Of a stretch of DNA of 64,000 nucleotides, positions 2,047 through 62,093 are shown one piece after another. The notes below the pieces were generated by a model. That model saw only the letters and a list, made by a program, of their open reading frames with translations, was not told where the DNA came from and ran no database searches. How positions within the stretch are numbered: position 1 is the first letter of the stretch; every line of letters begins with the position of its first letter. Both the position numbers and the translations under genes were made by a program. The DNA comes from Ostreococcus lucimarinus (taxonomy: Eukaryota), in the NCBI GenBank assembly GCA_000092065.1, contig CP000593.1. The stretch is one strand, 5' to 3'.

Positions 2047-3727
2047 ATGGCGTTCGCGCTCGGCGCGAGCGCGGAGGAATGGGCGATCGACGCGTGGATG
2101 CGGTTACCGTTGATCGCCTGGGCGAGTTCGTTCGTCGGGACGGTGCGTCGGGCGGTCGCGCGCGGCGCGCGCGCGGCGCGAACGCGATGGATGGTCGAGC
2201 GGGCGCGCGCGCGCGCGTTGAGAGCGACGCGAGACGCGTTCGGGCGCGCGAGACGGCGACGCGCGAGGCGCGGCGCGGTGACTGACGGGAGTTTCGAACG
2301 CGCGGTGGACGCAGCTCATGAATAAGCACGCGAAGACGCCGAAGATCACGGGATACTTGCTCGCCGGCGTGGCGTTTGGGCGACACGGTTTAGGCGCGTT
2401 GTCGGCGGCGGGATCTCGACGGTTATGGCTCGTCGATAACGGATGCCTGGCGTGCATCGGCGTCGCGGCTGGATCTGAGGTGGTGCTGAGTGAGGTGCGG
2501 AAGACGCTGCGGGTGACGATGGTGACCATCGCGAGCGTGGCGTGCTGCTGCTGGTGCGCGACGTTTGGCGCGTTCGACGCGATTTTCGCGCAGAGGGTGG
2601 AGTTTTTGCAAGGGCTGACGGAGCGACACGTCGCGGCGGTGGGATCTTTATTGGGGACGCTTTCGTTGGCGCGCTCGCCCGCGAGTGCGATGGCGGTGAT
2701 CAACGAGTGCGAGGCGAGCGGGCCGTATTGCGCGCACATTTTGAGCACGACGGTTTTGAAAGACGTTCTCGTCGTCGCGTTGTTCGCTATAAACGTCGAG
2801 CTCGTGGCGCTTTCGGGATTAGACTTCCACAATATCATATCAGATGCGGCGACGATGGCCTTGGGAGGTGAGATCGCGAGCAACACGACGCGCGATGTCG
2901 GCGCGAGCGCGGCGGCGAGAAGACTCTTGGTGAATTTGAAGCCCGCGACGCAATGGGAAACTTCGCATCCCATCACCAAGCTTTTGCAACCTATAGTGCG
3001 GGTGATCGGGGCCGCCATTGCGGGTATCATCGCAGGCGTCCTACTTGGACGCTTGCTCAAACCCACGTCCTTGGCGGCGCGTTGGAAAAACATTCGTGTC
3101 GGCTGCATCGTGTGCGGCGCCGCCGCCATCTTTGTGTCTAGCGAACATCTCGGATTGGAGCCTTTATTGGTGTGCGTCGCCGCCGGTCTCACCGCGGCAA
3201 ATCGCAAGCATACGAACGGCGCGCACGAGCGCGAGGAGTTACACGCCGCGATCGCGATCGTGACGCCAGCGGTAAATTTGCTCTTCTTCACCCTCGCCGG
3301 CGCGAGCCTGCGCCTGGAAAACGTGTACAACTCCATCGTCATCGCGGTCGGTCTCGTCATCGTTCGTCTTTTGGGGCTGTATTGTGCCACGGCAATATCT
3401 GCGCGCATACTCAAAGCACCGGCGGTGAGCGACATCACGGGCGAACGGCGCAAAAACATTGAATGGATGGGGCACGTCACCCAAGCCGGCGTCGCGCTCG
3501 GTTTGTCGCGCACCGTCGCCGCGAGATTTCCATACTGGGGCCCCGCGTTTTCGACGCTGGCCGTGTCCGTGATCGTCATCAACTTATTCATCGGTCCCGT
3601 GTTATTTCGCGCATCCATAGAACTCATGAACGAGTCGCACTCGACGCTCAACGCGGCGTTGGAGCGCATCGTCGCGACGCCCAAGCGCGCGGTCGAGGCG
3701 CCCGCGACCGGCTCTCCTTCCCTTTAG
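2047..3727 (+). CDS. Cation/H+ antiporter, CPA2 (Kef/KEA-like Na_H exchanger family), 2 exons: 2047..2142 and 2315..3727
   Basis: Polytopic membrane protein with the CPA signature KITGYLLAGVAFGRHGLG near the N-terminus. The ORF beginning at ATG 2318 lacks the first TM helix. Exon 1 (MAFALGASAEEWAIDAWMRLPLIAWASSFVGT) supplies it and joins in phase 0 through a GTGCGT...ACTGAC...CAG intron. Confidence 0.7.
2143..2314 (+). other. Predicted intron (172 nt) of the CPA2 antiporter
   Basis: Donor ACG|GTGCGT at 2143, ACTGAC at 2281-2286, acceptor CAG ending at 2314. Phase 0 on both sides. There is an in-frame stop if it is not spliced. Confidence 0.55.
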
Positions 3728-3838
3728 CACAGCGCGCCGCGCGCCTAGTCCATTTGTATCGAAAGTCTCCTTTCTTAGTGTATTACATTCGCATGATTCA
3801 TTCGCCGCTAAACTAAAATTAAACAGGCTCTCGCGACC

Positions 3839-4341
3839 CTATTCGAGCTCGAGTCGCTTCTCCACATCCTTCCAGAGTTTACCCTTATTCGAGCTGCGCG
3901 CGAACCGTCGACGAAAACCTCGGTCAATCCCCATTCGCATCATCGCGCGCGCGCGCGCGCGCCTCGCGCGCGTCGCGCGCGTCGCGTCGTTTCGCGTCGC
4001 GTCGTTTCGCGTCGCGTCGCTTCGACCCCTCACCTCTCCCACGCGCGATCGAATCCGTAGTTCAACGCCTTCTCCCCCGCGAGCGCCCCCGCGACGATCA
4101 CCCCGACGTACACCGCCGAATTCTGCGCGCGCGCGTTCGCGCCTCGTCAGTCCCCCCGTCCTCGCGCGCGTCGCGCGCCGCCCTCCCCCCTCGTCGTCGA
4201 GATCGCGCGCTCGATCGTCGCCGCCTCGCGCGCGCCGTCGCCCGCGCGCCGCCCGCGCGCCGTCGCCCGCGCGCGCCGTCGCGCCCGCGCGCGCTCGCGC
4301 GCACGCACCGACATGAACGTCTTGTAAAACGCGCCGAACAT
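3839..4341 (-). CDS. QCR9: Cytochrome bc1 complex subunit 9 (QCR9/UQCR10), 3 exons: 4341..4309, 4122..4034, 3893..3839
   Basis: The spliced product is 58 aa: MFGAFYKTFMSNSAVYVGVIVAGALAGEKALNYGFDRAWESSNKGKLWKDVEKRLELE. The FYKTF..N.AV.VG..AG helix and the NKGKLWKDV tail match yeast Qcr9 and human UQCR10. Splice phases are consistent. This gene is not represented in the ORF track. Confidence 0.8.
3894..4033 (-). other. QCR9 intron 2 (140 nt)
   Basis: Donor AG|GTGAGG, ATTGAC branch-like motif, acceptor CAG. Phase 2/1 recreates an AGC (Ser) codon. Confidence 0.7.
4123..4308 (-). other. QCR9 intron 1 (186 nt)
   Basis: Donor TCG|GTGCGT; ACTGAC (plus-strand gtcagt at 4146-4151) 24 nt before the acceptor CAG; phase 0. 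Confidence 0.75.
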
Positions 4342-4351
4342 CGTCGCGCGT

Positions 4352-4592
4352 CCGTCCGTCGATCGCGTCGCGATCTGCGCGCGCGCGCGTCGTCGCCGCC
4401 GATCGCTCGAACCTCGAGCCATCGATCGTTCGCGCAGATTTAACCGCATCGCGAGGTTCGATCGACGACGCCGTCCGTCGATCGCGCGTCGCGATCCGCG
4501 CGCGCGCGCGATCGTCGCCGCCGATCGCTCGAACCTCGAGCCATCGATCGACTCCACCGATTTCACCGCATCGCGAGGTTCGATCGACGACG
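4352..4592. repeat. Tandem duplication, 2 x ~120 bp, CGATCG-rich, in the QCR9/ANTH divergent promoter
   Basis: Copy A is 4352-4470 and copy B is 4471-4592. They share long identical blocks (ccgccgatcgctcgaacctcgagccatcgatcg, caccgcatcgcgaggttcgatcgacgacg) with a few indels. Confidence 0.85.
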
Positions 4593-4662
4593 CGCGCGCG
4601 GGTTCGCCGGCGCGCGGGCGCGCCCGCGCCGGCACAGACGCGCGCGGTCGCGTCGGCGCGCG

Positions 4663-6813
4663 ATGCCGCTCCGGTTGCAGAAAAAGGCGTCGCGCGTCGT
4701 GCGCGCGGTGGCGGAGGAGGTCCAGGTCGCGCGCGGCGTCGGCACGCGCACCGATAAGCGCGGGAACGCGAAGACGGCGCTGTGGGAGCGCGGCAAGGTG
4801 CGATCGAGCGGCGGATTGGCGCGTGTCTCGATCGGCGCGACGAGGATCGCGCGCGAACGCGCGACGCGAGGCGACGCGCGACGCGCGCGCGCGGAGACGC
4901 GAAGGGAAACCCGCGCGGGAGATTCGGGGAGACGCGCGAGAGACTGACGGGACGCGGACGCGACGCAGGCGAAACTCGCGGCGACGGCGGTGGAGAAGGA
5001 GTTCGCCGAGACGCAGTTGGCGTTTAGCAAGGCGACGAATTTCGATGACGTGCCGCCGAAGGAGAAGCACGTGCTGGCGCTGGTGCGCACGTGCGGAGGC
5101 GCGGGCGGAGGGAGCTCGAGGGATCGGGCGTTCGTGTTGGAGACGTTGGCGAGACAGGTGCGGAAGTGCGCGCCGTGGAGGACGATGCTGAAGACGCACG
5201 TGTTGCTGCACAGGTTGATGCGGGAGTGCGAGGGAGGGGGGTTTAAGGATGACTTCTTCAGGTTTTTGGAATTTTTATCTCGGAAAACGTACGGGCCGAA
5301 AGAACAGACGCTGTTTAACATTCGCTACTGGAAGGACGAGACCAACAAGGACGCGTACGAGTTGTCGGGGTGGACGCGCGCGTACGCGGCGTACCTCGAA
5401 GAGCTGTGCGCTTTGAATGAGTTCATCCCGAGCCTCGTAGGAAACGTGAGTGGCGCGGTGACGACGACGACAAACGGCGAGGCGCGAGCGGTGGTGGCGA
5501 ATCCGTTGAAAGATTGTGATTTCGCGACGTTGATCAAGGTTTTGCCCTTGGTGCAGACGCTCGTGCGACGCATCACGGATTGCGCGCCAACATCTACGAC
5601 GCTGCAGAAAAATGCCGTCTCGCGATACGCCGTCGGACTCGTCGCAAAGGATAGTTTCTTGGTGTATCGCGTCATGAACGAGGGCATCATAAACCTGGTG
5701 GACAAGTACTTTGAAACGAGCAAAGTCGAGGCGGAGAAAGGGTTGGTGATTTTCAAAAAGTACTTGACGCAAATCGAAGACTTGCAACGATTTTACGACA
5801 CGTGCGAAGCGTGCGCGGCGGTGGAAAACGCAGTCGTCAAGCTTGAAGCACCCCCTGCGACGTTTTTGAAGAGCATGGAAGAGTACTTCGAATCGGCGCC
5901 TCGCGAAGGCTTGCCTCTTCGCGAGCGGCGGTTGGGCGCGACATCTTCGACGACGGCGAACAATGCACGAGCGAATGCGGTGGGGTCGACAATGTTGGCG
6001 ATCGACGTCCCCGCCAACAACGCGGACTTTATCAGTACCACTGCTGCGCTACCGCCGGTGGAGCCGTTGAATGCGCTCGATGCGCTCAGTCAGCTTGATT
6101 TAGGTACGCCGAGCCCAACGAGCAAAGACGATGTTTTTAGCTCAAACGCGCTGCCCGCGCCGACGCAACCGCCGGCGTTAGCGCCGGTCGCGCCCGCAGC
6201 TTCGAGCAGTACAAGCGCACTTGATTCTTTCTCCGAGTCAATCGCTCCGGCGGTGCCGACGGAACCCTCTGCGGTGGCGTACAACCCATTCGGAGCGAAC
6301 CCATACGGCGGCGCCCCGCAAATGGTGCCGGCGGCTCCGCAAACGGCGCCGGCGCCCCAAGCAAAATCGCCGAGAAGCACGAACCCATTCGGAAATAACC
6401 CGTTCGGTACACCACAGCCTCAAAGTTTGGACAAGAGCGCACTCAATGACTTATACGCGCAAGCTCCAGCGTCACCCAGGAGTGGCCATGGCATGAGTTC
6501 CATGGCACCGCCGCAACACATCAATCCGAGCTTTATGCAAGCGCCGCCCAACAGCGCCTTGCAGCGGCAGCAAGTTGGCGCACCTCAGCTAGCGCTACCG
6601 ATGGCTGGTGTGCAGTATCCACAACAATATCCGCAGATGGCGTTCCCCCAGCACCATCAGCAGATGGGATACCCGCAGCAGCATCCGCAGATGGGATATC
6701 CCCAGCGCCCGGCGGCTGAACCACCGTTGCACCCGGCGTTCGCCAACCCTCACCAAGGCGGCAGTCCAAGTTCTAGCGCTCCATCACCGCAGAACTCCGG
6801 CAGTTTGATTTGA
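4663..6813 (+). CDS. ANTH-domain clathrin assembly protein (AP180/PICALM-like); likely 2 exons: 4663..4797 and 4969..6813
   Basis: ANTH core is present: SKATNFDDVPPKEKHVLALV...WRTMLKTHVLLHRLMREC...LSGWTRAYAAYLEE. The C-terminal half is P/Q/A-rich with NPF motifs (NPFGANPYG, NPFGNNPFG). The ORF-track start at 4990 is GTG, and the first in-frame ATG would delete part of the ANTH domain. An upstream exon starting at ATG 4663 joins in phase 0. Confidence 0.75.
4798..4968 (+). other. Predicted intron (171 nt) of the ANTH gene
   Basis: Donor AAG|GTGCGA at 4798, ACTGAC at 4943-4948, acceptor CAG ending at 4968. There is an in-frame TGA inside. An alternative earlier donor (GAG|GTCCAG) cannot be excluded. 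Confidence 0.45.
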
Positions 6814-8370: not shown

Positions 8371-8801
8371 AATAAGATGTAAATATAAAAAATGAATCCG
8401 TCACTCTTAGACTGCGATCGCGTTCCGATGCGTGTCGGAAATGGTAGACTGCCAGCGGAGCCATCAAAGGCTTCCTAATCGTCAACCGCACGATCCGCCC
8501 CAAAGTAAACTTTAATAAGATGTAAATATGAAAAATGAATCCGTCACTCTTAGACTGCGATCGCGTTCCGATGCGTGTCGGAAATGGTAGACTGCCAGCG
8601 GAGCCATCAAAGGCTTCCTAATCGTCAACCGCACGATCCGCCCCAAAGTAAACTTTAATAAGATGTAAATATGAAAAATGAATCCGTCACTCTTAGACTG
8701 CGATCGCGTTCCGATGCGTGTCGGAAATGGTAGACTGCCAGCGGAGCCATCAAAGGCTTCCTAATCGTCAACCGCACGATCCGCCCCAAAGTAAACTTTG
8801 A
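8371..8801. repeat. Near-perfect tandem repeat, 3 x 143 bp
   Basis: Unit starts (taagatgtaaatat...) are at 8373, 8516 and 8659. I see 1 mismatch between copies 1 and 2 and 1 at the end of copy 3. The repeat fills the gap between two convergent genes, from 3 bp after the MFS stop codon to about 40 bp before the 3' end of the next gene. Confidence 0.95.
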
Positions 8802-15838: not shown

Positions 15839-17260
15839 CTACTTGAACTGCATGTTTTGCAGTTTTCCTTGCCGAGTCAGGAGATCGCTCAGAAGATCAT
15901 CCGACGACCCCCCGCGATTGAGTCTATGAAACTGTCGACGATGTAACTCGTAAAGCTCTTTCAAAGATTCGGTGTACAGGGCGTGGTACTTGTCGATGAT
16001 TTCGTTTGACGGATCGACGACTTTGGGCACGGCGATGGGATTGCCCACGACGACTTCGATCGGCTCACGCTTCGGAAGCACACCTTTGCGACCAAAGATT
16101 CGACGCCACATGCCTCGACTGAGCGACCGCCCGTAAAAAGCAGGCGGCGTGATGCCAATGAGTTGTTTGATGTACATTTGGAAATTCCTCAATCGTCCGC
16201 CTTCGGGATTTTCCACTTGTTCGAAGATGTCATTCTCGCCGAACGCGAACACGGGCACGAGCGATGCTCCTGTGCGAAGAGCCATCTTTACGAACCCCTT
16301 GCGTCTGGCGAGCGTGAGCGTGGCCCAGCCCGGACGCGCGTCCAACGCTTCGGAGGCGCCGCCGATGACTATGGCGACGGACGCCCCCGGCGCGCGCGTC
16401 AGATTCGTCTCCACGCTCGACTTGGTCACGCTATTGATCCCGAGCCCCATCAACACCTCGCGAGTGAACGGGAACTTGAAGTTCATGGACAGCGTGAGAA
16501 GACGCAAATCGAGTCCCGGAAATGCTTCGTAAAATCCCGTCGCCTCGGTGGCGAACGTCAACAACGCGCCGACGCCGATGACGCCGTGCGGATGATAACC
16601 GAACAAGTAATTACCGCTCGGATCTAACTTCGCGCTCACGTGTAATCGCACCGGAAAATACTCCGCCAAAATCCTCCAAAACGGTAACCGCCGAGACCAT
16701 CGAGCGAAACGCTTCCCCGAGCTCGCCGTCTTCCTGTCGAGCGTCGCGTACCACGCGATGTACCCCAGGAAGAAATTCTTCAACCACATCGACGGCCCGA
16801 ACACGCAATACGCGGGATATACGAATATCGCGCTCAGTATCCACGCGTATATCATCACCACGATCCCCACCTGCTCCGCGTGCGGCCCGTGTTCCGTGCC
16901 GTTCGTCACGAAGACGCTCTTCACCAGCGCCGTAAAGTACAACCCGAGCGGCACGAACGCCGCGCCGATCACCGCGTACCACAGGTAAAAGTTCCCCAGC
17001 CAAAACACCAAGCCTACGTTTTCGCATCCATTCGTCCATCCGTCAGTCGTCGTCCGCGATCCGTGATCCGTTTCGTCGTCGCGCGCTCGTCTAGATTTGG
17101 ATTATCTCTCCACCCGCGCGTCTCCCCATCGCTCGTCCATCGCTCGTCCATCGCGTCGCCCATCGCGCCATCGCGCGCGCGCACCTCCTAATTTATGTCG
17201 CGTCGCCGTCGCCATCGCCGGCGGTTCGACGAACGTCGCGAGCGCCTCGGCGCCGCGCAT
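15839..17260 (-). CDS. DGAT2: Diacylglycerol O-acyltransferase type 2 (DGAT2), 2 exons: 17260..17185 and 17013..15839
   Basis: DGAT2 signatures are present: EYFPVRL, GYHPHGVIGVGA, FPFTREVLMGLG, RKGFVKMALRTGASLVPVFAFGEND. The ORF-track start at 17011 is TTG, and the frame has no ATG until residue 53. The upstream exon MRGAEALATFVEPPAMATATRHKLG joins in phase 1, recreating GGC. An alternative ATG lies at 17215. Confidence 0.8.
17014..17184 (-). other. Predicted DGAT2 intron (171 nt)
   Basis: Donor G|GTGCGC; ACTGAC (plus-strand gtcagt at 17042-17047) 29 nt before the acceptor TAG. Phase 1 matches on both sides. Confidence 0.6.
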
Positions 17261-36150: not shown

Positions 36151-36228
36151 CCGTCGCGCGCGCCGTCGATCGCGCGCGCGGCGCTTTTGTATCACCTTTT
36201 TCGTCGTACACAGTCACCGTTTCGCGCC

Positions 36229-42055: not shown

Positions 42056-44821
42056 ATGGGCAAGAAACGAAACGAATCGCGCGACGAACGCGTCGATGAC
42101 GACGCCGACCACGACGCGTGGCTGCGCGACGACGAGTCGTGGCGGTCGTTAAGCGTGAACACCAACGCGCTCATGCTCGGGGCGCAAGAAGAAGGATTCA
42201 TGAGTTTGGAAGTTTTGGACCCGTCGGCGGCGAGCGACTACGCGAAGACAAACGCGTCAAACGGCGACGCAAAGGGAACGACGAAGAAAGGTGAAACGAA
42301 AGCGAAAGCGTCAATGAAGAGCGATGGTGATCGAGCGAAGGCCAAAGCGGGGAAGAAGAAGGCTTCGAAGAAGTCGAATGAGAATTCGACGACGACGGCG
42401 GTGCCGAGCGCGTTAGCGGCGCTGGACGAAGCCGCTCTGGAGGGCTTGTCGGGGAAGGAGGCGCGAATTATGAAGAGAAAACTGCGCTGGAAGGCAAAGA
42501 TCGAGGCGAAGAAAATAGCGAAGAAGAGTGGTGCGGTGGCGGTACCGGCGGCGAAGAAGAACAGTGGTGACGGCGTTGCCATCGTGGACGACGCGCCGAC
42601 AACGTCTGGCGCGACTCAAGCTAAGAAGAAGAAGGACACGAAAGTCACAGAGAAGAAAGAAAACAGAAAGACTTTAGTGAAACCGGATGAAGAGCTCGTT
42701 GCGGATGCAGCATTGGACGTGGAAGAGGATTGGGAAAAGATTACACACAAAAAGGTGGCGGCGAAAGATGCGCCGATGAATAAGGCGTCGACGGCGAGTG
42801 GTTTCGATTACAACAAGCACCCGACATCAGGAATGAGTGCTGTCGTCGATGGCGTGGATTTAGATCGTGGTTGCGACGTGAGTGCATGGTTTGAGTTTGA
42901 TTTACACCCGCTCATCATGCGCGCGATTCAAGATTGCGGTTTTACCACGCCAACGCCTATTCAGCGCGAGTGCTTGCTACCGGCGACAAAGGGTCGATGC
43001 GATATCATCGGTGCGGCGCAAACGGGGAGTGGGAAAACTTTAGCGTTTGCGTTGCCTATTTTGCAACGCTTACTTTCCCAAGGTATCGGTTTACCCGAAG
43101 GATACGCGACGAAAGAGGAAGAAGATTCAGAGCAATTGCCAGACGTGCTTCGAGCACTCATCGTCGCGCCCACGCGCGAATTAGCGCTCCAAGTCTGCGC
43201 CATGATGCGCGCAGTCGCGGTGTACACGAAAATTGACGTATGTCCTGTCGTTGGTGGGATGTCGAAGGAAAAGCAAGAACGACTTTTGAATAGGAAACCG
43301 GCAGTCATCGTCGCCACGCCTGGGCGGATGTGGGACACAATGCAAAGCGGCCACGAGCACTTGACCGAACTCAGCGCGCTTTCGTTTTTCGTCCTCGACG
43401 AAGCCGATCGTATGGTGGAGCGAGGTCATTTTAGCGAGCTCACGAGCATCATTCAGAACATCCCGCAGCCGCCGCGCATCAAGCGTCCGGGCGGCGCCGC
43501 AAAGCTCACTAGCGTAGAACGCGAGGCTGCGGGGGCGACGGATGCGTTCGCTGAGGACACGGAAGAGGATGATAAACAGAAAGTGTTAGCCCTGCGCCCA
43601 AAGCAGATGCTTGATCGACAAACATTCGTCTTCAGCGCTACGCTCACGGTTCCGGATTCTGTGCGCAGAAAGTTGAAAAAAGGTAAGGCGTGGACGTCGA
43701 AACGTCCGGCATCCATGAGCGGAAAGCCGCAGAGCGGTTCTTTAGAATCACTCATGGAGGCTGTTCCGTTTTACGGGCGTGTGAAAATGGTCGATCTGAC
43801 CACAAAAGAGCGTAAAGGGGGTGCCGTGGCGAAATCAATCGCGGAAAGTGCGCTGGAGTGCACCGAGGACGATCGCGACTCGCTGTTGTACTATCTCCTC
43901 TCGGCGCATCCCGGGATGACCATCGTCTTCGTCAACGCTATTTCATGCTTGCGTCGGGTCGTGGCGCTTTTGAAGATTCTTCGCGTGCCCGTGGAAGGGC
44001 TTCACGCGGGTATGCAACAGCGTGCTCGTTTGAAGGCGCTCGATCGATTCAAAGCCGCTGCGGCGGCGGCGGACAAGGGCGATCGCCACGCGCACTCGGT
44101 GCTCGTAGCCACCGACGTCGCCGCACGAGGTCTCGACGTCAAGGGCGTGGAACTGGTCATTCATTACCAAATCCCACTCAGTGCGGACACGTATATTCAT
44201 CGAAGCGGCCGCACTGGGCGCGCGGATAAGTTGGGCGCGGCGGTTTCCTTGGTGACGCCGAAGGATCGCGCGCGATATTACTCGCTGTTGAAGTCTCTCA
44301 ACCGCGACGGACCATTAGACCCGTTCCCGATCGCGGAAGAGACTTTGACCGCCGCGAGCAGACGTTTAGCCGTGACGCGTAAGATCGACAAGCTGTCGCA
44401 CGCGAAGAAGAAGGCCAAGGCGGACAAGGAGTGGCGCAAGACGAACGCCGAGGAGCTCGGCATCATTCTCAGCGAATCCGAGTCCGACGAAGATTTACAA
44501 GAGTACCAAGAAGACCAAAGCGCCAAGAGCACGGCTGCGGCAAACGAGCGCAAGCTTCGCGCTGAACTCGATGCCATGATCGCCATCCCGCTCGGCTCTC
44601 ATCGTCACTCCTTGATCGGAAGCGCGAAATTCCCCAGTCGCGGCGGCGGCGACGCGTTGCTCAAAGCCAAGCGCGCGCGCGCTCGAGACGAATCCAACGT
44701 CTCCGCCGTCGCCATGCTCAACGGCGACAAATCCTCAAAATCTCAGCCTTTACCCGCCGCAATCACCGGCGCCATCGCCGGCGGCGCTCGCGGCAAGCGT
44801 CGCAAGACCAAGAAAATGTAG
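42056..44821 (+). CDS. DEAD-box ATP-dependent RNA helicase, DDX24/Mak5-like, with a lysine-rich N-terminal extension
   Basis: ATG at 42056 in a gccgccATGG context. Helicase motifs: Q (GFTTPTPIQ), I (AQTGSGKT), Ia (PTRELA), II (DEAD), III (SAT), VI (HRSGRTGR). Confidence 0.88.
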   Translation: MGKKRNESRDERVDDDADHDAWLRDDESWRSLSVNTNALMLGAQEEGFMSLEVLDPSAASDYAKTNASNGDAKGTTKKGETKAKASMKSDGDRAKAKAGKKKASKKSNENSTTTAVPSALAALDEAALEGLSGKEARIMKRKLRWKAKIEAKKIAKKSGAVAVPAAKKNSGDGVAIVDDAPTTSGATQAKKKKDTKVTEKKENRKTLVKPDEELVADAALDVEEDWEKITHKKVAAKDAPMNKASTASGFDYNKHPTSGMSAVVDGVDLDRGCDVSAWFEFDLHPLIMRAIQDCGFTTPTPIQRECLLPATKGRCDIIGAAQTGSGKTLAFALPILQRLLSQGIGLPEGYATKEEEDSEQLPDVLRALIVAPTRELALQVCAMMRAVAVYTKIDVCPVVGGMSKEKQERLLNRKPAVIVATPGRMWDTMQSGHEHLTELSALSFFVLDEADRMVERGHFSELTSIIQNIPQPPRIKRPGGAAKLTSVEREAAGATDAFAEDTEEDDKQKVLALRPKQMLDRQTFVFSATLTVPDSVRRKLKKGKAWTSKRPASMSGKPQSGSLESLMEAVPFYGRVKMVDLTTKERKGGAVAKSIAESALECTEDDRDSLLYYLLSAHPGMTIVFVNAISCLRRVVALLKILRVPVEGLHAGMQQRARLKALDRFKAAAAAADKGDRHAHSVLVATDVAARGLDVKGVELVIHYQIPLSADTYIHRSGRTGRADKLGAAVSLVTPKDRARYYSLLKSLNRDGPLDPFPIAEETLTAASRRLAVTRKIDKLSHAKKKAKADKEWRKTNAEELGIILSESESDEDLQEYQEDQSAKSTAAANERKLRAELDAMIAIPLGSHRHSLIGSAKFPSRGGGDALLKAKRARARDESNVSAVAMLNGDKSSKSQPLPAAITGAIAGGARGKRRKTKKM

Positions 44822-44916
44822 ACTTCGCCGCGATTCGCGCTCTCATCAATGCACGCGTCGCCGTCATCTCATCGCCTCGCGCGCGTCACACCTCGCCGCG
44901 TCTCGCGCCCGACCGC

Positions 44917-45565
44917 ATGCCGTCGCGATCGATCGACGATTTCTGCCACCTCCCGCGCGACCTCGCGCCCGGGTCGATCGGCGCCGACGTGCACTGCCTG
45001 CAAAGACTCCTCGTCCGGGAAAAGTTTTTGAAACGCGGCGCCCGAGCCGATGGACGATACGATGCGAACACGCGCGACGCCGTCAAGGCGTGGGCGACGG
45101 CGAACAAGTGGGCGAACGTCAGTGGCGGCGTAGACTCCGCGATGCGGCGCGCGTACGGCGAGGTGCGTGATGGACGCGGACCGATGACGAACGACCGACC
45201 GACCGACCAGTTGGACCGAAGACTGACGAGACGACGGACGCGCGCGCGCGAGATAGGCGAACGATTACGCGACGACGTCGAGCGGACGGTTGGTGAACGA
45301 TTGCGCGAATGGGAAAAATGTCGATGGGTTGGCGTGCGTGGACGTGTGCGTGGAACACGGGGAGACGACGCAGTATTGTCAGACGAAGTGCGCGACGCGA
45401 GACGACGATAAAAAGTTTGCGTGCAGAGCGGCGTGTCAGGACGCGTTCGCGGGTGCGTGCGATCGTGCGTTTCCACCGACGAGCGAAGAAAATCGGGTGA
45501 AGTTTGAGGGGTGCTTAGAAAACATGGCGGCGGAGTGCGCGCGCTCGTGCAAGCGATGGAAGTGA
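44917..45565 (+). CDS. Small protein with a peptidoglycan-binding-like domain (PG_binding_1 type) and a Cys-rich C-terminal domain, 2 exons: 44917..45162 and 45257..45565
   Basis: Exon 1 encodes LAPGSIGADVHCLQRLLVREKFL....DGRYDANTRDAVKAW, which fits the G..G..V..LQ..L........DG.F...T..AV pattern. Exon 2 has 10 Cys (CANGKNVDGLACVDVCVEHGETTQYCQTKCATRDDDKKFACRAACQDAFAGAC...C...C...C). The two ORF-track fragments join in phase 0. Confidence 0.65.
45163..45256 (+). other. Predicted intron (94 nt) of the PG-binding-domain gene
   Basis: Donor GAG|GTGCGT at 45163, ACTGAC at 45222-45227, acceptor TAG ending at 45256. Exon 2 is open exactly from 45257. Confidence 0.65.
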
Positions 45566-45672
45566 TGAAATCGTCGAGTCAAACGTGTAAATCGCGCGGC
45601 GTAGCCGGCTCTGGATTAACATTTTCACAACAAACTCGGTCGGCGTCGTCTCCCTAACGGCATCCTAACGGC

Positions 45673-46090
45673 TCATTCCTCGAGATTAATCGAGTTTCCT
45701 AGTCGCTCGTACAATTTCTAAATCTCGTCAGTCGTCGAACGCGCGCGCGGTCCGACGCGCGAGGCGCACCTTTTTCAACTCCTCCATGCCTTCTCGCAAC
45801 ACCTTCCTCTCCCCCTTCAGCGCCTCCAACGCCGCGCGCTCGCGCGTCAGCATCGCCTCAACCTTCGCCTCCGCCTGTTCGTTGTCCATCTTCACGAAGC
45901 ACTCCCCCATGAGCACGCACGCGTCGTCCTCGTCGTTGACCGCGAGCTCGGTCGAGGCTTCGTCCAAGTCATCGATCTGCTTCTCTTTGTGTTTAATCTC
46001 CGAGTTTATCTCGTGCGCGCGCGCGTTCATGCGCGAGAAGGCGCATATGCGCTGTTGGTCCTCCCACGTCACCTCCTTCGCGGCGCTCAT
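45673..46090 (-). CDS. PFD4: Prefoldin subunit 4 (PFD4), 2 exons: 46090..45770 and 45717..45673
   Basis: The product starts MSAAKEVTWEDQQRICAFSRMNARAHEINSEIK...; compare human EDQQKINKFARNTSRITELKEEI. After splicing the C-terminus reads ...MEELKK|KLYERLGNSINLEE, matching human ..LKVQLYAKFGSNINLEAD. The unspliced read-through (VRLARRTARAFDD) does not match. Confidence 0.88.
45718..45769 (-). other. PFD4 intron (52 nt) preceding a 45-nt terminal exon
   Basis: Donor AAG|GTGCGC; ACTGAC (plus-strand gtcagt at 45727-45732); acceptor TAG; phase 0. Confidence 0.8.
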
Positions 46091-46522
46091 GGGCGCGGCG
46101 AGGCGTCGTCTGGCGCCCGCGCGATGGTTGGCGCGAATGACCCGGGCGCGCGCGCAGCGCAAATCCAAGAGCGATCGGCGTAAAAAAAGTAACGCATCTT
46201 CAAGTCCACCTGGAGCGACGCACGCGTGAGTCACGGAGTTCACGACGCGGACGCGCGGCACGCACCTCCTTAACCACTCGGACACAGTGACCGCGTCGCG
46301 CGAACGTCACCGACGAGATTTGAACTCGCGCACGCATAGCGTAGTGGATATCTTTAATACGAAAGAATACTGCATAAATGCACATGTCGGCTTCAGTGCG
46401 TTCGCGCGATGCGATTTCGTTGATGTTACAGGTTGAATACGAAACCACGCGCGGGGCGTCGGACGATGCTCGACGAGAGCGCGGGGAGGCGTCGCGAGGG
46501 CGAACGCGAAAAGGGAGAAGCG

Positions 46523-53563: not shown

Positions 53564-54067
53564 ATGTCGCTCGCGATGACGACGCGCGCGCGAAGCGCGC
53601 CGGTGGTGGGCGTCGATGCGCGCAGACGACGAGGCGCGAACGCCGACGTCAAGGCGCGCGCGCGATGCGTCGCGCGAGCGTCGGAAGCGAACGATGACGA
53701 CGATGGCATCCAGCTCGGAACGGCGAAACTGCCGCCGACGTGCGATGAAACCGCGCTATGCGATGCGCTGTACCAGTGGGCGAGCACACTGACGAGCTCG
53801 GGGCAAAATTTGCCGTTCGCGCTGTCGCAGCGCGTGGATCGGACGAACGATGGGTTTGAGTTGGCGTTTTTGACGGCGGCGAAGAACGGCGCGCCGGGGG
53901 AGTTGGCGGCGGTAGGGGCGATCGCGGCGAGCGTTGAGGTCGCTGGACAAGAGAAGGTGTTGATGATACGTGGATATGGGAATGTAATGAATTTGGTGGA
54001 CACGCCTGTGGTGATGGGGGCGATGCCGGCGGCGATTCGACGCGCCGTCGCGATGTCTTCGGCGTGA
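53564..54067 (+). CDS. Small plastid-targeted-looking protein, family not recognised
   Basis: First ATG at 53564 (the ORF-track start is GTG). The leader is MSLAMTTRARSAPVVGVDARRRRG. The body YQWASTLTSSGQNLPFALSQRVDRTNDGFELAFL...VLMIRGYGNVMNLVD has ordinary, non-repetitive composition. Confidence 0.5.
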   Translation: MSLAMTTRARSAPVVGVDARRRRGANADVKARARCVARASEANDDDDGIQLGTAKLPPTCDETALCDALYQWASTLTSSGQNLPFALSQRVDRTNDGFELAFLTAAKNGAPGELAAVGAIAASVEVAGQEKVLMIRGYGNVMNLVDTPVVMGAMPAAIRRAVAMSSA

Positions 54068-55203: not shown

Positions 55204-58200
55204 TCACGACGTTGCACAGAACGCGGCGTCTTCGGTGAAGATGTTAGCGATGGTGACGTTCTGCTCAGGGAGCTGTAACGCCAAACCGTCGATGTGACGA
55301 ACGGTGAAGAGGGCGCTCGATGGACCGCCGACAATCCAGCACTCGGCACAGAGAGAGATATCGCGGAACGTGAGCTCGACGCCGGCCTCGACAACTTTAG
55401 CTTCGACGTAGACGCCACAGCCATTGTCATCGCTTGATGGTGGTCCATCGCGAGATCGCACGCCGACGAAGATGCAATCGACGATGAAGTCTTCTGGAGG
55501 CGCGACAATCGGAGCTTCGTTCGCAGCAACGACGATTCTCTCAAATGGAAGCATCACGGCGACACCATTCAGGCAGATTTGATCGCTCACGCGTCCAAAA
55601 TTGATCGCTGTTCCTGTAACGACAGCTTGAGAACCACCTTCGCCGCGTAAGAGCTGGAGACTCAAGCGTGCGTCCGTCTCGCGTAAACGCTCTGGCGCGG
55701 ACTCCGTCGGACAAATCGTTGCGTCGTCGGGTGAGCACGTTCTCGAAAGTCCATCGACCGGAATCGGCGCCGGAGTCGGTGTGGATGGCGGTGCACCAGG
55801 AGGCAACTGTGCGCCCGGTATTACCGTAATCGTCGACGCTGGGATCTGCACAGGGACACCAGGCTGAAGAGTGAAGTAAGTCGCGGAATCCGGAGCTGGA
55901 GGCGTGGGCGATGATTCTGTCGGAGGCGTAGGCGTAGGCGTTGGCGTAGGCGTTGGCGAAGGCGTTGGCGTAGGCGTTGGCGAAGGCGTTGGCGAAGGCG
56001 TTGGTGAAGGCGTTGGCGAAGGCGTTGGTGAAGGCGTTGGTGAAGGCGTTGGTGGTGGTGATGGCGATGGTGGAGACCTTTGCGTAGGAAACCATCCGCT
56101 CGTCCAAGGAACGTCCGGACCTCGATCCCATGCGGCAATTTCCGTAGGTCCACGCTCCGCGGTGTATCCACCGCCAATCGCCCGTTTCAACCAACACGAG
56201 TGATATGCAAAGTCTTTGCAATCGCCGGTACAGTAAACCCACGTATCACAGTCGCGCGTTCGAAAGCATGCTTGGCAACACGCCTCTTCGGTATCGACGA
56301 TGAATTTTGAGCCATCGCGAAGAAGTATGCCTTTGAGGTTCAATCCTTTTTCGCCGTTGCACACGAGACCGTTTACCGGTGTTGGCGTCATCGGAGGTGA
56401 AGTCGGAAGCATCGCAATTGGCTCAACGAGTTGTCCTTGTATGTCTCTTCGACAAGTGGGGTTTCCAACCGATGGCCCAACGTAATCAAAACGCGCGCCC
56501 GAAAGCGATACAACGCGAAACAAGGTCTCATTGTCGCCCTGGAGTTTGCATCCAGCACACAGCGTGACGTTCGACAGGGAGACTTCGAGCAAAGTAACTT
56601 TCGGCAGTGGTCGTCCACTCGCCTCGTTGAAGACGCCGTCGGGTGCGTACGATGCCATGCGGAATTGAAGCCCTGCACAAGGTTCGAGGCTCGGAGTGCG
56701 AGATTCGCCGTTCACGACGGTTATCATCAAACACTCAATGGCGTACTCGTCGAAAGGATTTTGAACTTCTCTCCACGTACCGTTGATGTCATTTACCCAC
56801 GAACTCAGCACGATTGGGATGTTGACATCAATCAACCGAATCGCACCACCGTCGTTGTTTACTCCAATCGAGCCGCGGAAATCATAGCGGTTGAATGGCG
56901 CGACTCGGAAGTCGCCACCGACGTCGACGCGTTCACCAAACCACGACAGCGAGGCTTGAACGCGTGGAAGGACATCGAGACAATCCACGGGGCGTCCTCC
57001 ATCTGAGGTTTCGCCGTCGAAACCGTCGCGAAAAGATGGACGTGCGTATTGCGTCAAATTGAAGCCAGCGAGCGGTCGTAACGGCGCGATCGATGGTGTG
57101 ATGTCTGTGCGATTTGCGTCGCCAAACTGGTCTTGATCTGGAAAGAAGGGAATGCCACCAAAGAACTGTAGCAATTTGCGTCGTGAATCGTTAGGAGGAC
57201 TCTCGAATACGTCTGTCCAACTACCTCCGACATCGCATTGAAGCGCTCGAATCGTTGGCGCGAGTGCGTCGAGTGTCGCCTCTGATTCATGCTTTGCGGT
57301 GAACAGTTTACCATCTTGAACACGTCCCGTGATGGCGGCATCCGGAGGAATCGTCAAGTTTGCAAGTGTTATTTTGATACCGGCGATACTTTCTTCAATC
57401 GTCGCGCGATCGCACAGCGTATCATCTAGGACTTCTCCGCGAGCGGATATGAGCGAGAGTCCAGCGCATTCCACAGATGGAACGCTCAAAGCATCAACGA
57501 ATTCATTCATGTTACCTTCCCGACGTCGATAGCCAATCACGACCGTGACTTCAGGAACACGAATTGTGCTATTCGCGCAACAACCGATTGCGCCGAGAAC
57601 GTCGTAATCGGTCGAGTTTGGCCGCGAGGCGACGACGAGAAAGTTCTTCAGTTCTCGGACCGGATCGCACTCGCTGCGTCCAGGCGTGTCGCTTGGAATC
57701 ACTTGACCGTTTTCAACGACAACACCGTATCCTTCAAGCGGGCGTGTAATGGGTGGAGTGTCCGTTCCGATCGGAATCGTCGGATCGGTGTCATTTCCGG
57801 GCCGTTCAACGACGATGGTTTGAACCCCTAATTCCTCGGAGAGCGCCGGGCAGGCTTCCGTCAAATTGAACCCGCATCCTAGCGGCGTGAACCCAACAAT
57901 CTCTCGCAAGAACATGACGTTATCGTCGGTGATGAGTGTGAAATCATCGCACAGACAGCTTTCGTTGTGCAATCGAGCTGCAGCGCCGCAGCACGGTGCA
58001 AAATCAGAGATGCGTGGTATCACTCCGACATCGTTTTGCTGAATCGCGCTGCAGTATTTCCGCGTCACGTCAATCGTATCGGCGCAGGAGATGTCATCTC
58101 GCAACGCGCCACCATCGTCAACAATGCGCTCCCACTTTTCGTCGGGGATGACGAACTCGGGTACCGCAGTCGGAGTGCTCAAGAATTGCGTCAAAAGCTG

Positions 58201-61200
58201 CTGATCCTCGCACACGTCACCGACTTTGATTCTAAAACCGCACGCAAGAGGCGTAAATGCTGAAAGTTCACCTACGGACGGGCGGATGCCTTCGAAACTT
58301 TGAATGAACTCTGGAACGCAGAAACATCCAGCTTCATCCAAGTCGCTCAGCGCAACGCAACAACTCGGGAACGAAGCAGGGTTCGGACCACTGATGGTCG
58401 CAGTTTCAAATCCCACGCACAGTTCTTCGACACGTGGGATATTCGACACGCACAACGATGTGAGCTGCGAGTATTCCGAAGTCGGTACGAGAGCTATGAC
58501 ACGAACAAGGCGTTCTGCGGAGACATCGCATCCACCTGAGTCACGCACTCGGTAATACACGCGATAAGTGCCGACACGACTGGTGTCCACTTCGCTTGTG
58601 TCTGCCTCGATTGCGTCTGAAATGTCACCGTCGAGTTCATCCGTCGCAACAGCCCCGGGGTCAACGTACAGCGAGTTGAGCAAGACTTCATTTTGCACTG
58701 CATTTGGTCCGCCGACGAGACGTAGCGTTGGGCATTCATCGACTGGAGGTGGTGGACTCGGCGGTGGCGGTGGAGGCGGCAACGGTGGCGGCGATGGTGG
58801 AGGGGGGCTTGGTGGCGGGGGGCTCGGCACTGGAGGCGGCGGTGGTGGACTCGGCGGCGACGGCGATGGGGGCGATGGGGGTGGTGGTGATGGGCTCGGT
58901 GGTAGAGGACTCGGCGGCGGCGGCGATGGAGAAGGCGGGCTCGGCGGCGGCGGCGATGGAAGCGGACTCGGCGGCGGTGGCGATGGCGGAGGTGGACTTG
59001 GAGGCGGACTCGGAAAGCAAGACAGGCCGGAAACGAGCTCAAGTCCAGAGTCACAGAGAGTCGGTGCAGTGATTTGAACGGTGCGAATCGCATCACCGAG
59101 TTCGTCGATGATGGCTGTATCGCAAAAGCAACGCTCGACGTTCATTCCCCTAACAATGTCGCAGCATGACGGATCGAAAGCTTCGTCATTTTCGATGCCA
59201 AAAATTGATCCACATCGACCTTGTAAATCCTGAAGAAGTCGGAGACAAGTAGGAAGAATCGGAGGGGATGGAGATGGCACCGCCACCGGCGGTGGAGGTG
59301 GCGGCGATGGAACTTCCACCGGCGGTTGCGGCGGAGGTGATGGCGATGGAACTTCCACCGGCGGTTGCGGCGGAGGTGATGGCGATGGAACTTCCACCGG
59401 CGGTTGCGGCGGAGGTGATGGCGATGGAACTTCCACCGGCGGTTGCGGCGGAGGTGATGGCGATGGAACTTCCACCGGCGGTTGCGGCGGAGGTGATGGC
59501 GATGGAACTTCCACCGGCGGTGACGGCGAGGGAGGTGATGGTGATGGAACTTCCACCGGTGGAGGAGGAGACGGTGAAGGTTGCACGATCGGAGGCGATG
59601 GTGGTGGTGATGGCATCATGACTTCAGCGCCGACTACGCCGCTTGTCCATGTCACGTTTTCCCCGCGTTCCCAAGCCGGCACCGGAATCGTTTCCACATC
59701 TTCTTTCGAAAGCTTCTTCAGCCAGCATTCGCCGAACTTGTAGTCGTAGTACTCGTTGCCACAGCCATCGATAGACGCGCAGAATACCCAAGCATTGCAC
59801 TTTTTCATTTTTTTGCACTCGGCGCAGCATTCGGTTTCGCTATCGACAACCAAGTCCGAGCCGCTATTCAACGGATGTCCCTTGTAATTGGCGTTTTCTT
59901 CTACTCGACACCCCTCAATCGACGGGACGGGTTCAGGAATTCGATCGACGAGCGAGCCACTGACCCAAGGAACGCCGTCGCCTCGCGCGATGGCTGGTGG
60001 TTTTTGAGGGTCGCCGCCGACGAGAAAAAGTTTCAACACACACGTCTGGTAAGCGAATTCGCCATCGCATCCGCTGACGTCATCGCAAAAGTTCCACACA
60101 GCACACGCTGGATCAGCGAGGCAAGCGTCGCAGCACGCGCTCCAAGAGACTGCGTTAACAATTGAAATCTGGATTCCGTCGTAGTTTGCGTTTGTCTCTG
60201 CTCGACATTCTTTGCGCTCGTTTGATGTATCAAACGGCACTGGCTCCACTTCTTTATCACGCAGCGCACCGGAGATATAAGTCGCGTTTGGTCCACGTTT
60301 GCCAGGAATGGTGTCTTGAGAAATGATTTCCGGTGCGGCGTACTTGAGTTCGCAGGATGAGTACGAATAAGCGAACTCCGATCGCCCGCATCCGTCGTTG
60401 GCGGTACAGAACGTCCACACGTTGCAGTTTGGATTTTCTCTACAGGCTAAGCAGCAAGCTTCGGGAGATGGAACCAAGAACAAACCAGTAGTGAGTGTAG
60501 ATCCTTCGTACTCTGCGTTTGCCTCCTCGTCGCACGGGCGGACGAGCTCCGCGTCAGTCGGCCCGTCGCCCCGCGGAAATCCAGCGCAAATCGGTTCGCG
60601 TAAACCATTCGGCGAAATTTCTGTGCTCGAGAAACCACGACCATCCGCGTACGAGAGATCGAGAACGACGTTGTTTGGACCACCGACGATGAAGCAGCCC
60701 GGGCACAGCACTAAATCATCACCAAAACTGAGTTCTACGCCTCGTTCGGTAACGACGGCTTTGCATGTTGCCGCGGCGTCGCTCATGGGTACCGATGAGA
60801 TCGGATAGACGATTTGCAACCCCTCGCACGCGGCTTGCAACTGAGACTGCTCGTAGTCTCCGCCGAGATCGATCGCGAACGTCACCTTTGACGCGTCAAG
60901 AGTGCTGCACGAGCGATGTCCGACGATGCCGCGAATTCGAGCGACGCCGTCTTCAATCTGAGACTCGAGAGTGCTGAAGACGACGTCGAGAAGACTCGGA
61001 CACGCACTCAGCATGATTTGAGCGTTTGGATTCCAGCCAAACGTTGACGTTGGTGCGACACTTACGATTGAGGATGCGGTGGTAAACGCGCTGGGATCGC
61101 ACGTGGGATCGAGCGCGCGCACCGATTCGGCGTCAAGCACGCGCGATTCGCGATCTCGAAAAGAAAACAAAAAGTTCGAGTATCCTCCGGCGAGGAACTC

Positions 61201-61644
61201 GCCAGCGTTTAAAGCGATGGCGCCAAACGTCACACGTGGGCCGACATCATTCATCTGGATGCTTAAATCGCCGCAGTCGACGATTCGCCGCGCACCGCTC
61301 GGAGCGACGATCTGCGACCCCCAACACGTAAACTCAAACTCGCCGAGCGTCGTAAACTCGCTCGCGGCGTCATCCAATCGTATCAATTTCGAAAATTCAA
61401 ACTGAACCGTAACTCCATTCAAATTCACCTCGCGATCGGCATCATTCACGATCAACACGCTCGCGTACGTCTCGCGCGCGCCGCGATCCGCGTCGTCGGC
61501 GCGCGGCGCGTCGACGCCGACGCGAAGCATCGAATCCGTCGGCGTCGAGTGACTCCACGCGTACGCATCGATGGACAACGCCCCACCACCGAATCCTTCG
61601 CAATTCACACCCGCAAAATCCACGTTCGTCGCTTCATCGTCCAC
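55204..61644 (-). CDS. Giant (at least 2146 aa) extracellular-matrix/cell-surface glycoprotein: 4 PAN/apple-like modules, extensin-like Pro-rich blocks, an Ig-like (DUF5011/HYR-like) module and three 8-Cys-motif modules; 5' end unresolved
   Basis: A single 6.4-kb open frame.
- PAN/apple-like modules: CCLACRENPNCNVWTFC, CCDACLADPACAVWNFC, CCAECKKMKKCNAWVFC (59690-60530) and CCQACFRTRDCDTWVYC (56170-56350).
- Pro-rich blocks: PVEVPSPSPPPQP repeats, an SPPPP block (58740-59010) and a (PTPS)n block (55905-56065).
- 8CM modules at 59017-59247, 58210-58452 and 57850-58086.
The ORF-track start is GTG, and no ATG or signal peptide is present at the N-terminus. Confidence 0.8.
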   Translation of the reverse strand: MDDEATNVDFAGVNCEGFGGGALSIDAYAWSHSTPTDSMLRVGVDAPRADDADRGARETYASVLIVNDADREVNLNGVTVQFEFSKLIRLDDAASEFTTLGEFEFTCWGSQIVAPSGARRIVDCGDLSIQMNDVGPRVTFGAIALNAGEFLAGGYSNFLFSFRDRESRVLDAESVRALDPTCDPSAFTTASSIVSVAPTSTFGWNPNAQIMLSACPSLLDVVFSTLESQIEDGVARIRGIVGHRSCSTLDASKVTFAIDLGGDYEQSQLQAACEGLQIVYPISSVPMSDAAATCKAVVTERGVELSFGDDLVLCPGCFIVGGPNNVVLDLSYADGRGFSSTEISPNGLREPICAGFPRGDGPTDAELVRPCDEEANAEYEGSTLTTGLFLVPSPEACCLACRENPNCNVWTFCTANDGCGRSEFAYSYSSCELKYAAPEIISQDTIPGKRGPNATYISGALRDKEVEPVPFDTSNERKECRAETNANYDGIQISIVNAVSWSACCDACLADPACAVWNFCDDVSGCDGEFAYQTCVLKLFLVGGDPQKPPAIARGDGVPWVSGSLVDRIPEPVPSIEGCRVEENANYKGHPLNSGSDLVVDSETECCAECKKMKKCNAWVFCASIDGCGNEYYDYKFGECWLKKLSKEDVETIPVPAWERGENVTWTSGVVGAEVMMPSPPPSPPIVQPSPSPPPPVEVPSPSPPSPSPPVEVPSPSPPPQPPVEVPSPSPPPQPPVEVPSPSPPPQPPVEVPSPSPPPQPPVEVPSPSPPPQPPVEVPSPPPPPPVAVPSPSPPILPTCLRLLQDLQGRCGSIFGIENDEAFDPSCCDIVRGMNVERCFCDTAIIDELGDAIRTVQITAPTLCDSGLELVSGLSCFPSPPPSPPPPSPPPPSPLPSPPPPSPPSPSPPPPSPLPPSPSPPPPSPPSPSPPSPPPPPPVPSPPPPSPPPPSPPPLPPPPPPPSPPPPVDECPTLRLVGGPNAVQNEVLLNSLYVDPGAVATDELDGDISDAIEADTSEVDTSRVGTYRVYYRVRDSGGCDVSAERLVRVIALVPTSEYSQLTSLCVSNIPRVEELCVGFETATISGPNPASFPSCCVALSDLDEAGCFCVPEFIQSFEGIRPSVGELSAFTPLACGFRIKVGDVCEDQQLLTQFLSTPTAVPEFVIPDEKWERIVDDGGALRDDISCADTIDVTRKYCSAIQQNDVGVIPRISDFAPCCGAAARLHNESCLCDDFTLITDDNVMFLREIVGFTPLGCGFNLTEACPALSEELGVQTIVVERPGNDTDPTIPIGTDTPPITRPLEGYGVVVENGQVIPSDTPGRSECDPVRELKNFLVVASRPNSTDYDVLGAIGCCANSTIRVPEVTVVIGYRRREGNMNEFVDALSVPSVECAGLSLISARGEVLDDTLCDRATIEESIAGIKITLANLTIPPDAAITGRVQDGKLFTAKHESEATLDALAPTIRALQCDVGGSWTDVFESPPNDSRRKLLQFFGGIPFFPDQDQFGDANRTDITPSIAPLRPLAGFNLTQYARPSFRDGFDGETSDGGRPVDCLDVLPRVQASLSWFGERVDVGGDFRVAPFNRYDFRGSIGVNNDGGAIRLIDVNIPIVLSSWVNDINGTWREVQNPFDEYAIECLMITVVNGESRTPSLEPCAGLQFRMASYAPDGVFNEASGRPLPKVTLLEVSLSNVTLCAGCKLQGDNETLFRVVSLSGARFDYVGPSVGNPTCRRDIQGQLVEPIAMLPTSPPMTPTPVNGLVCNGEKGLNLKGILLRDGSKFIVDTEEACCQACFRTRDCDTWVYCTGDCKDFAYHSCWLKRAIGGGYTAERGPTEIAAWDRGPDVPWTSGWFPTQRSPPSPSPPPTPSPTPSPTPSPTPSPTPSPTPSPTPTPTPSPTPTPTPTPTPPTESSPTPPAPDSATYFTLQPGVPVQIPASTITVIPGAQLPPGAPPSTPTPAPIPVDGLSRTCSPDDATICPTESAPERLRETDARLSLQLLRGEGGSQAVVTGTAINFGRVSDQICLNGVAVMLPFERIVVAANEAPIVAPPEDFIVDCIFVGVRSRDGPPSSDDNGCGVYVEAKVVEAGVELTFRDISLCAECWIVGGPSSALFTVRHIDGLALQLPEQNVTIANIFTEDAAFCATS
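59303..59570. repeat. Coding minisatellite, ~7 x 39 bp (PVEVPSPSPPPQP units) inside the giant gene
   Basis: ggcgatggaacttccaccggcgg anchors lie at 59303, 59342, 59381, 59420, 59459 and 59498, with a variant at 59540. The period is exactly 39 bp and the five central copies are identical. Confidence 0.9.
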
Positions 61645-62093
61645 CTACACCGCCGCGCGCGCGTCAGTCGCGTCCTTCATCCTCGTCTCGCGATTCCATC
61701 GCGGCGTCTCGACGCCGACGCCGCGTCCCGCGCGAATCCTCGCCTCGCACCTGCAGCATCGTCCGCGACGTCCCGAGCCCTTCCCGCGCGCGCGCCACTC
61801 GCGTCTTCGTCCCACCGCCGCGCTTTCGTCAGTCTTTCCCTTCGTCGTCGCGCGCCGTCCCGTTCGAATCGTCCTTCGTCGCGTCGCGTCGCTTTCGAGA
61901 TACGAAGCGTCGTTCGGTCCCATCGTTCGCGTCGTTCGCACCATCGCGCACGCCGCGACGACCGCGTCGCGCACGCGCGCCGCGCCGCGCGTCGTTCGTC
62001 GTCGCGTCGCTCTCGCGTCGCGTCGCATCGTTTCGTCGTTCCCCGTCGTCGCGATGTGTCGTCCATCGTCCGTCCGTCATCCATTCACTCATC

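Follow-up and report, generated by a model that had tools for sequence, protein, structure and literature searches.

Introns with near-invariant splice signals in a 64-kb stretch of the Ostreococcus lucimarinus nuclear genome

Ten introns and their shared signals

The stretch of DNA analysed here (64,000 nt of contig CP000593.1, assembly GCA_000092065.1; hereafter the window) stems from a normal high-GC nuclear chromosome of Ostreococcus lucimarinus CCE9901, and it carries ten intervals that the initial annotation had proposed to be introns built on one donor, one branch and one acceptor signal. The open reading frame (ORF) at 30126-31916 (+) is identical to XP_001420929.1 (A4S6E5) of this strain, and several further ORFs match O. 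lucimarinus records. The GC content is 61.9% overall and 56-69% in every 4-kb block, and a codon-usage scan indicated ca. 39 tightly packed genes, which corresponds to an intron density of ca. 0.26 per gene (10 introns for ca. 39 genes). These high-GC, intron-poor surroundings lie outside the low-GC, intron-rich part of chromosome 2. No Rfam match at gathering thresholds was found in the window, neither for a small nuclear RNA (snRNA) nor for any other RNA gene.

Four of the introns are on the + strand and belong to genes for a CPA2/Kef-type transporter (CPA2), an ANTH/ENTH-domain protein (ANTH), RPA2 and a PG_binding_1-domain protein (PG); the six on the - strand comprise two in QCR9 (complex III subunit 9), one each in the genes for DGAT2, the Ran GTPase and prefoldin subunit 4 (PFD4), and a candidate at the 5' end of a PAN-domain/proline-rich gene. 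All ten have GT at the 5' end and CAG or TAG at the 3' end, exactly at the boundaries given below. The donor is GTGCG followed by T, C or A in nine and GTGAGG in QCR9 intron 2; ACTGAC occurs in the same proportion, with the branch A located 10-36 nt from the 3' end, while QCR9 intron 2 has ATTGAC at 30 nt. The nine introns that bear ACTGAC all contain the complete octamer GACTGACG. Lengths range from 52 to 242 nt, with three of 171-172 nt, and the pattern is in all these respects as initially described. The exon base that precedes the donor is G in 9/10 and donor position +6 is T in only 4/10. The introns are GC-rich (63-85%). On their sense strand G accounts for 44% and T for 8.7%, as against 33% and 18%, respectively, in coding sequence, and runs resembling (GACGC)n and (CG)n make up the greater part of their bodies. 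No polypyrimidine tract lies between branch and acceptor, where T amounts to ca. 9% and G to 46%.

That these intervals are real introns is supported by four kinds of data. All ten splices leave the reading frame open across the junction, as is found for U2-type GT-AG introns. Four of the spliced proteins, which cover five introns (Ran, the two of QCR9, PFD4 and ANTH), are identical to RefSeq models of O. lucimarinus CCE9901. The spliced junctions of PFD4, PG and DGAT2 occur verbatim over 40 nt in public contigs whose identity to the window is otherwise 98-100%, indicating precise excision. Finally, introns are conserved in other clades (see below).

In the following, a slash marks an exon-intron boundary or a spliced junction, and distances run from the branch A to the 3' end of the intron. 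QCR9 contains intron 1 at 4123-4308 (-; 186 nt, phase 0, donor TCG/GTGCGTGC, acceptor CAG), with GACTGACG placing ACTGAC at 4151-4146 (-), 24 nt from the end, and intron 2 at 3894-4033 (-; 140 nt, phase 2, donor GAG/GTGAGGGG, ATTGAC 30 nt from the end, acceptor CAG); the protein obtained by removing both corresponds to XP_001421071.1. The ANTH intron at 4798-4968 (+; 171 nt, phase 0, donor AAG/GTGCGATC, acceptor CAG; ACTGAC of the octamer at 4943-4948, 21 nt) leaves a frame that remains open if it is retained, and the spliced protein corresponds to XP_001420922.1. The Ran intron at 32728-32924 (-; 197 nt, phase 1, donor CGG/GTGCGCGA, acceptor CAG; ACTGAC of the octamer at 32767-32762, 35 nt) splits the P-loop, GDGGT/GKTT, which splicing restores as had been claimed; the product is XP_001421080.1 (A4S6E6).

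The introns of PG, at 45163-45256 (+; 94 nt, phase 0, donor GAG/GTGCGTGA, acceptor TAG; ACTGAC of the octamer at 45222-45227, 30 nt), and of PFD4, at 45718-45769 (-; 52 nt, phase 0, donor AAG/GTGCGCCT, acceptor TAG; ACTGAC of the octamer at 45732-45727, only 10 nt), are both missing from one Logan contig (L031), which lacks exactly these two and contains the exact spliced junction of each. For PFD4 the junction is also present in a second contig (L030), and the spliced protein is identical to XP_001421083.1 and to the ORF of an MMETSP transcript, in agreement with the earlier statement that its C-terminus is restored. In PG the coding signal changes frame at the intron, and no match to the spliced model was found in the protein collection. 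Four loci (L024-L027) that are 99-100% identical to the window were uninformative for comparing these two introns.

The DGAT2 intron at 17014-17184 (-; 171 nt, phase 1, donor GAG/GTGCGCGC, acceptor TAG) has ACTGAC, within GACTGACG, at 17047-17042 (-), 29 nt from the end. Its exact 40-nt junction was found in two Logan contigs (L028 and L029) that are 99% identical to the window and in which only this intron is missing, and the spliced model shares 99% identity with a 464-aa protein (P0287). Homologues, among them an MMETSP transcript and a protein from Bathycoccus, conserve the junction, ..VEPPAMATATRHKLG/GLVFWLGNFYLWY.., without a break, and an older Bathycoccus model carries an insertion exactly at the intron site. 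The RefSeq model XP_001421075.1 (338 aa; 15839-16855, -) lacks 126 N-terminal residues.

For CPA2 and RPA2 no transcript evidence was found. The CPA2 intron at 2143-2314 (+; 172 nt, phase 0, donor ACG/GTGCGTCG, acceptor CAG; ACTGAC of the octamer at 2281-2286, 29 nt) separates a 33-codon exon 1 from a 469-aa ORF (2318-3727, +). The RefSeq model XP_001420921.1 consists of this ORF only (469 aa), without exon 1 and the intron, and the spliced model adds 33 residues to it. Exon 1 and the intron position, together with a GTGCG donor and ACTGAC, are kept in clades at 70-75% protein identity.

The RPA2 intron at 26830-27071 (+; 242 nt, phase 2, donor GCA/GTGCGTCG, acceptor TAG; ACTGAC of the octamer at 27031-27036, 36 nt) follows an exon 1 (MSDFAGATQYAGSHGYMPQ, with the end ..ATQYAGSHGYMPQ/) that is kept, along with the donor GTGCGT, GACTGACGGTGG and a YAG acceptor, in two relatives at 55% (L020) and 49% (L023) protein identity, where exon 1 has the pattern ..ATQ[FY]AG..GYM[PA][EQ]. 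This conservation, which includes GACTGACG, bears out the N-terminus proposed initially. The RefSeq model XP_001420928.1 (249 aa; 27051-27807, +) starts at an ATG within the intron, and the spliced model has a net gain of 14 residues over it. Within the intron, at ca. 26905-26935 (+), lies an AT-rich island, TTTTGAAATTTTGAAATTCTCGGCAC (TTGATTTTGAAATTTTGAAATTCTCGGCAC), which is recognisable in both relatives (ca. 1290-1340 in L020 and ca. 195-225 in L023), the remainder of the orthologous introns being unalignable. The island may be an intronic regulatory element.

The candidate intron at 61645-61750 (-; 106 nt, phase 0, donor CAG/GTGCGAGG, acceptor TAG) has ACTGAC, again within GACTGACG, at 61668-61663 (-), 19 nt from the end, and would precede an ORF of 2,146 codons (55204-61644) encoding a PAN-domain and proline-rich protein. 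Its acceptor TAG is also the stop codon that opens the ORF. The donor position, ACTGAC and the acceptor TAG/GTGGA are kept in two relatives, one at 93% identity (L033) and one at 64% (L032; donor GTGAG), and neither transcript nor annotation evidence was found for the intron. In both relatives (ca. 850-1200) the gene has one more intron further upstream (GTGCG..GACTGACG..CAG), with a short middle exon between the two, and the three-exon model of L032 yields a signal-peptide-like N-terminus. In the corresponding part of the window (61751-62000, -) the branch motif of the upstream intron survives at 61833, GAG stands in the place of its acceptor and the ATG of the middle exon is lost. Donors at 61941, 61951 and 61974 are possible alternatives for the candidate intron, and the 5' structure of this large gene is accordingly provisional. 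Database N-termini of the large protein and of RPA2 were uninformative, most matches being ORFs called as in prokaryotes, with starts within the intron or directly behind it.

Orthologous introns in other Ostreococcus clades

A metagenome scan with the CPA2 exon recovered syntenic loci of lucimarinus-like genomes and of two other Ostreococcus clades, referred to here as X and Y. Clade X shows 73-75% identity to the query, while clade Y is equally distant from lucimarinus and clade X, at 69-70% identity. The CPA2, ANTH and first QCR9 introns occur at the same codon positions in both clades, with different lengths and interiors that cannot be aligned. Among the orthologous introns, in clades at 69-75% protein identity, the donor GTGCG is found in 17 of 18 and the branch GACTGACG in 14 of 18. 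QCR9 intron 1 has orthologues at six loci of three other clades; they are 140-219 nt long, and every one contains GTGCGTG and GACTGACG. In clade X the position of the ANTH intron is kept with a branch of the form G[AG]TTGAC, the donor being GTGGGAG at one locus. Taken at the level of sequence comparison, these data indicate that the donor and branch signals are under functional constraint while lengths and interiors diverge, and the RPA2 and candidate introns point the same way.

QCR9 intron 2, the only intron of the window to break the pattern and one whose interior is a (GACGC)n/(CG)n repeat, has a different distribution. Only when it is removed does the protein end in the conserved C-terminus ..KGKLWKDVEKRLELE; it is present in the lucimarinus-like loci (L002-L006) and in one further locus at 96% identity (L019). 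Clades X and Y (L007, L009, L014 and L015) lack it and have a continuous exon; these clades share ERANAGK at the site, and lucimarinus has E/SSNKGK. By pairwise distance clade X is nearer to lucimarinus than clade Y is, and by that measure it is the sister of lucimarinus, so that a single gain is more parsimonious than two losses. Intron 2 may thus have been gained recently in the O. lucimarinus lineage, a reading on which we consider the case to be evenly poised. The alternative is that it was lost twice independently; intron loss with a 3' bias is common, and the comparison that favours a gain covers Ostreococcus clades only.

Specificity of the motifs and their use in annotation

When both strands of the window are counted, ACTGAC occurs 19 times against 18.9 expected from dinucleotide shuffles and is not enriched overall, and 9 of these 19 copies fall within ca. 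300 nt of pre-acceptor sequence. The chance of its occurrence, ca. 1.5e-4 per position, amounts to ca. 0.4% per intron, which makes the figure of ca. 1% given initially a fair and conservative one. The octamer GACTGACG was found 12 times in the window for 3.9 expected, with nine copies in introns and one in the vestigial upstream intron of the last gene.

A loose regular expression of the form GTGCG..ACTGAC..YAG returned 10 matches in the window, 3.4 being expected by chance. One match, at 53740-53830 (+), is a false positive that lies within a continuous, well-scoring ORF and whose removal (91 nt) would shift the frame; another, at 60513-60829 (-), falls inside the large ORF. The remaining gaps, which the initial annotation had suggested searching, were scanned by codon-usage log-likelihood and with relaxed motifs, and five suspicious ones were inspected; no further convincing intron was found in them. 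Since these frame-aware scans added none, the ten introns appear to be the complete set for the window. The recurrence of 171-172 nt lengths is put down to chance, because orthologues have other lengths and the three introns concerned share no similarity.

The proposal that the motif rule would suffice as an annotation tool for this genome holds in part. It recovers exons that are missing from three RefSeq models (CPA2, RPA2 and DGAT2), which are 5'-truncated or mis-started and each lack the first intron. Used alone, it also yields chance and false-positive matches; moreover, ca. 13% of confirmed introns outside chromosome 2 do not contain ACTGAC, and introns of chromosome 2 fall outside the rule.

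Elsewhere in the window, a 143-nt unit is repeated 3.0 times with 99% identity at 8371-8799, in the gap between two convergent genes; the unit is relatively AT-rich and matches no Rfam family. A segment at 35404-36213 (-) scores well as coding sequence (85.7) and overlaps the long ORF at 35581-39390 (+) in its 5' part; the coding signal of that ORF begins only near 36451, and the starts of both genes are provisional.

Nature, origin and recognition of the introns

The ten intervals are almost certainly ordinary spliceosomal introns of U2 type (GT-AG) and belong to the canonical class, which occurs outside the low-GC part of chromosome 2. The signals that they share are correct, ordinary and already known, having been published for O. 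lucimarinus in 2008 and for its relatives later. In introns of this species that were confirmed by expressed sequence tags (ESTs) and lie outside chromosome 2, the 5' consensus is GTGCGTG (4.8 bits), ACTGAC is present in 87.2% and GACTGACG in 66.5%, while chromosome-2 introns have neither the GTGCGTG nor the ACTGAC signal (Irimia & Roy 2008, PLoS Genet, PMC2483917). The genome-wide enrichment of GTGCG and ACTGAC that the initial annotation had proposed to look for is thus found in published data. Nothing substantive distinguishes the introns of the window from these, which are of the same species and have the same signals; ACTGAC and the octamer are both present in 9/10, the octamer being somewhat more frequent than in the published set and T at donor position +6 being confined to 4/10, as expected from ten introns. 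Canonical introns of Micromonas have AG/GTGCGT and NCTGAC, and GACTGACG is cited in that work as the extended branch site of Ostreococcus (Verhelst et al. 2013, PMC3879977); Mamiellales in general prefer GYGCGY donors (bioRxiv 10.1101/2022.06.08.495308). The donor consensus and the CTGAC branch core are shared with the sister genus Micromonas, although the branch motif there is reported to lie 43-52 nt upstream of the acceptor and that of the window lies 10-36 nt upstream. In contrast, the chromosome-2 (BOC1) introns of Mamiellales, which occur in the same genomes and are also GT-AG, are 40-65 nt long and AT-rich, with weak GTRNGT donors and without a branch consensus, whereas those of the window are GC-rich with strong signals. 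With the donor G/GTGCG(T) and the branch ACTGAC or GACTGACG near the acceptor, the window introns have the features of canonical non-BOC1 introns of Mamiellophyceae.

In this intron-poor genome the nearly invariant signals are a 5' splice site G/GUGCG(U/C/A) and a branch site GACUGACG positioned 10-36 nt upstream of a YAG acceptor. From general knowledge of the spliceosome, U1 and subsequently U6 snRNA would recognise the 5' site, and SF1/BBP followed by the GUAGUA box of U2 snRNA, with the A bulged, would recognise the branch site; CUGAC is a G.U-wobble variant of the CUAAC of yeast. The acceptor would be the first YAG downstream of the branch site. Signals of this rigidity fit the known pattern in which intron-poor eukaryotes converge on a strong consensus. 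Saccharomyces (GTATGT, TACTAAC), for example, has likewise a near-invariant donor and branch and the same CURAC core, although it uses GTATGT and CTAAC where the window has GTGCGT and CTGAC, and the intron body in the window is G-rich and T-poor.

Several observations weigh against this assignment, or against parts of it. Direct transcript evidence is limited to the introns of PFD4, PG and DGAT2, three of the ten, and for DGAT2 the contigs lacking the intron could formally reflect an intron-less allele. The Logan runs concerned are DRR066263, SRR28369094, SRR28369157 and SRR28369223. One Logan contig (L030, from SRR28369157; compared with 44095-46385 of the window) keeps the PG intron with that of PFD4 removed, which suggests either that the PG intron is retained in some transcripts or that unspliced RNA was present in the library. 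The candidate intron of the large gene is backed by comparative evidence alone, and its exon 1 would encode just three codons, M-L-Q. As to recognition, the roles of U1, U2 and SF1 in these introns are ones that we infer, and pairing with a canonical U2 box does not account for the G residues that flank ACUGAC.

These flanking G residues, which are invariant, and the C at donor position +4, which mismatches canonical U1, could be taken to mean that the signals are read by co-evolved machinery, with an altered U1, U2 or SF1, instead of a standard spliceosome that tolerates mismatches. That possibility was raised by Irimia & Roy (PMC2483917), and we regard it as unlikely: the U1 pairing region is standard, with no compensatory change, in all five species of Mamiellales searched (bioRxiv 10.1101/2022.06.08.495308). 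With a standard U1 (ACUUAC), the C at +4 would be tolerated and not compensated.

A more sceptical view is that the pattern is an artefact of selection, the introns having been placed by their motifs so that the sharing is circular and some of the intervals are not introns at all. The first reading was made by eye, ACTGAC is not enriched over the window as a whole, and the regular expression has ca. 3.4 chance matches per window and a real false positive at 53740-53830. We nevertheless consider this very improbable, given that the identities to RefSeq proteins, the junctions in contigs, the conserved upstream exons and the continuous DGAT2 homologues all provide support that does not depend on the motifs, and that no introns without them came to light when the remaining gaps were scanned with regard to reading frame.

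A common descent of the introns as copies of a mobile family, such as the introner elements of Micromonas, would account for both the shared signals and the lengths of 171-172 nt seen in three of them. Like the introns of the window, the IE-C introners of Micromonas RCC299 are short and carry the branch motif GACTGACG. Introners are, however, multi-copy and mutually similar, whereas an all-against-all BLAST of the ten introns gave only matches of at most 29 nt, all of them (CG)n or (GACGC)n low-complexity runs, and no further copies were detected when the whole window was searched by BLAST with low-complexity filtering. Orthologous introns are moreover found at the same gene positions and with other lengths in clades that have diverged by 25-30%, which argues that these are old, position-conserved introns. 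Descent from introners was accordingly rejected for the window and is hardly credible. U12-type introns can be dismissed, as none of the ten donors or branches resembles /RTATCCTT or TCCTTAAC.

For annotation of ordinary U2-type introns in this genome, the practical value of the rule is modest but real: combined with reading-frame logic it mends the CPA2, RPA2 and DGAT2 models and supplies the PG-binding protein with a spliced one. The AT-rich island of the RPA2 intron represents a small lead for gene regulation in picoeukaryotes, and the off-consensus, probably lineage-specific QCR9 intron 2 another for the evolution of their introns. If the latter was indeed gained, new introns would begin with sub-consensus signals that are later tuned to the consensus, and the gain would bear on the debate of "selective loss versus coevolution" over the rigid signals of intron-poor genomes.

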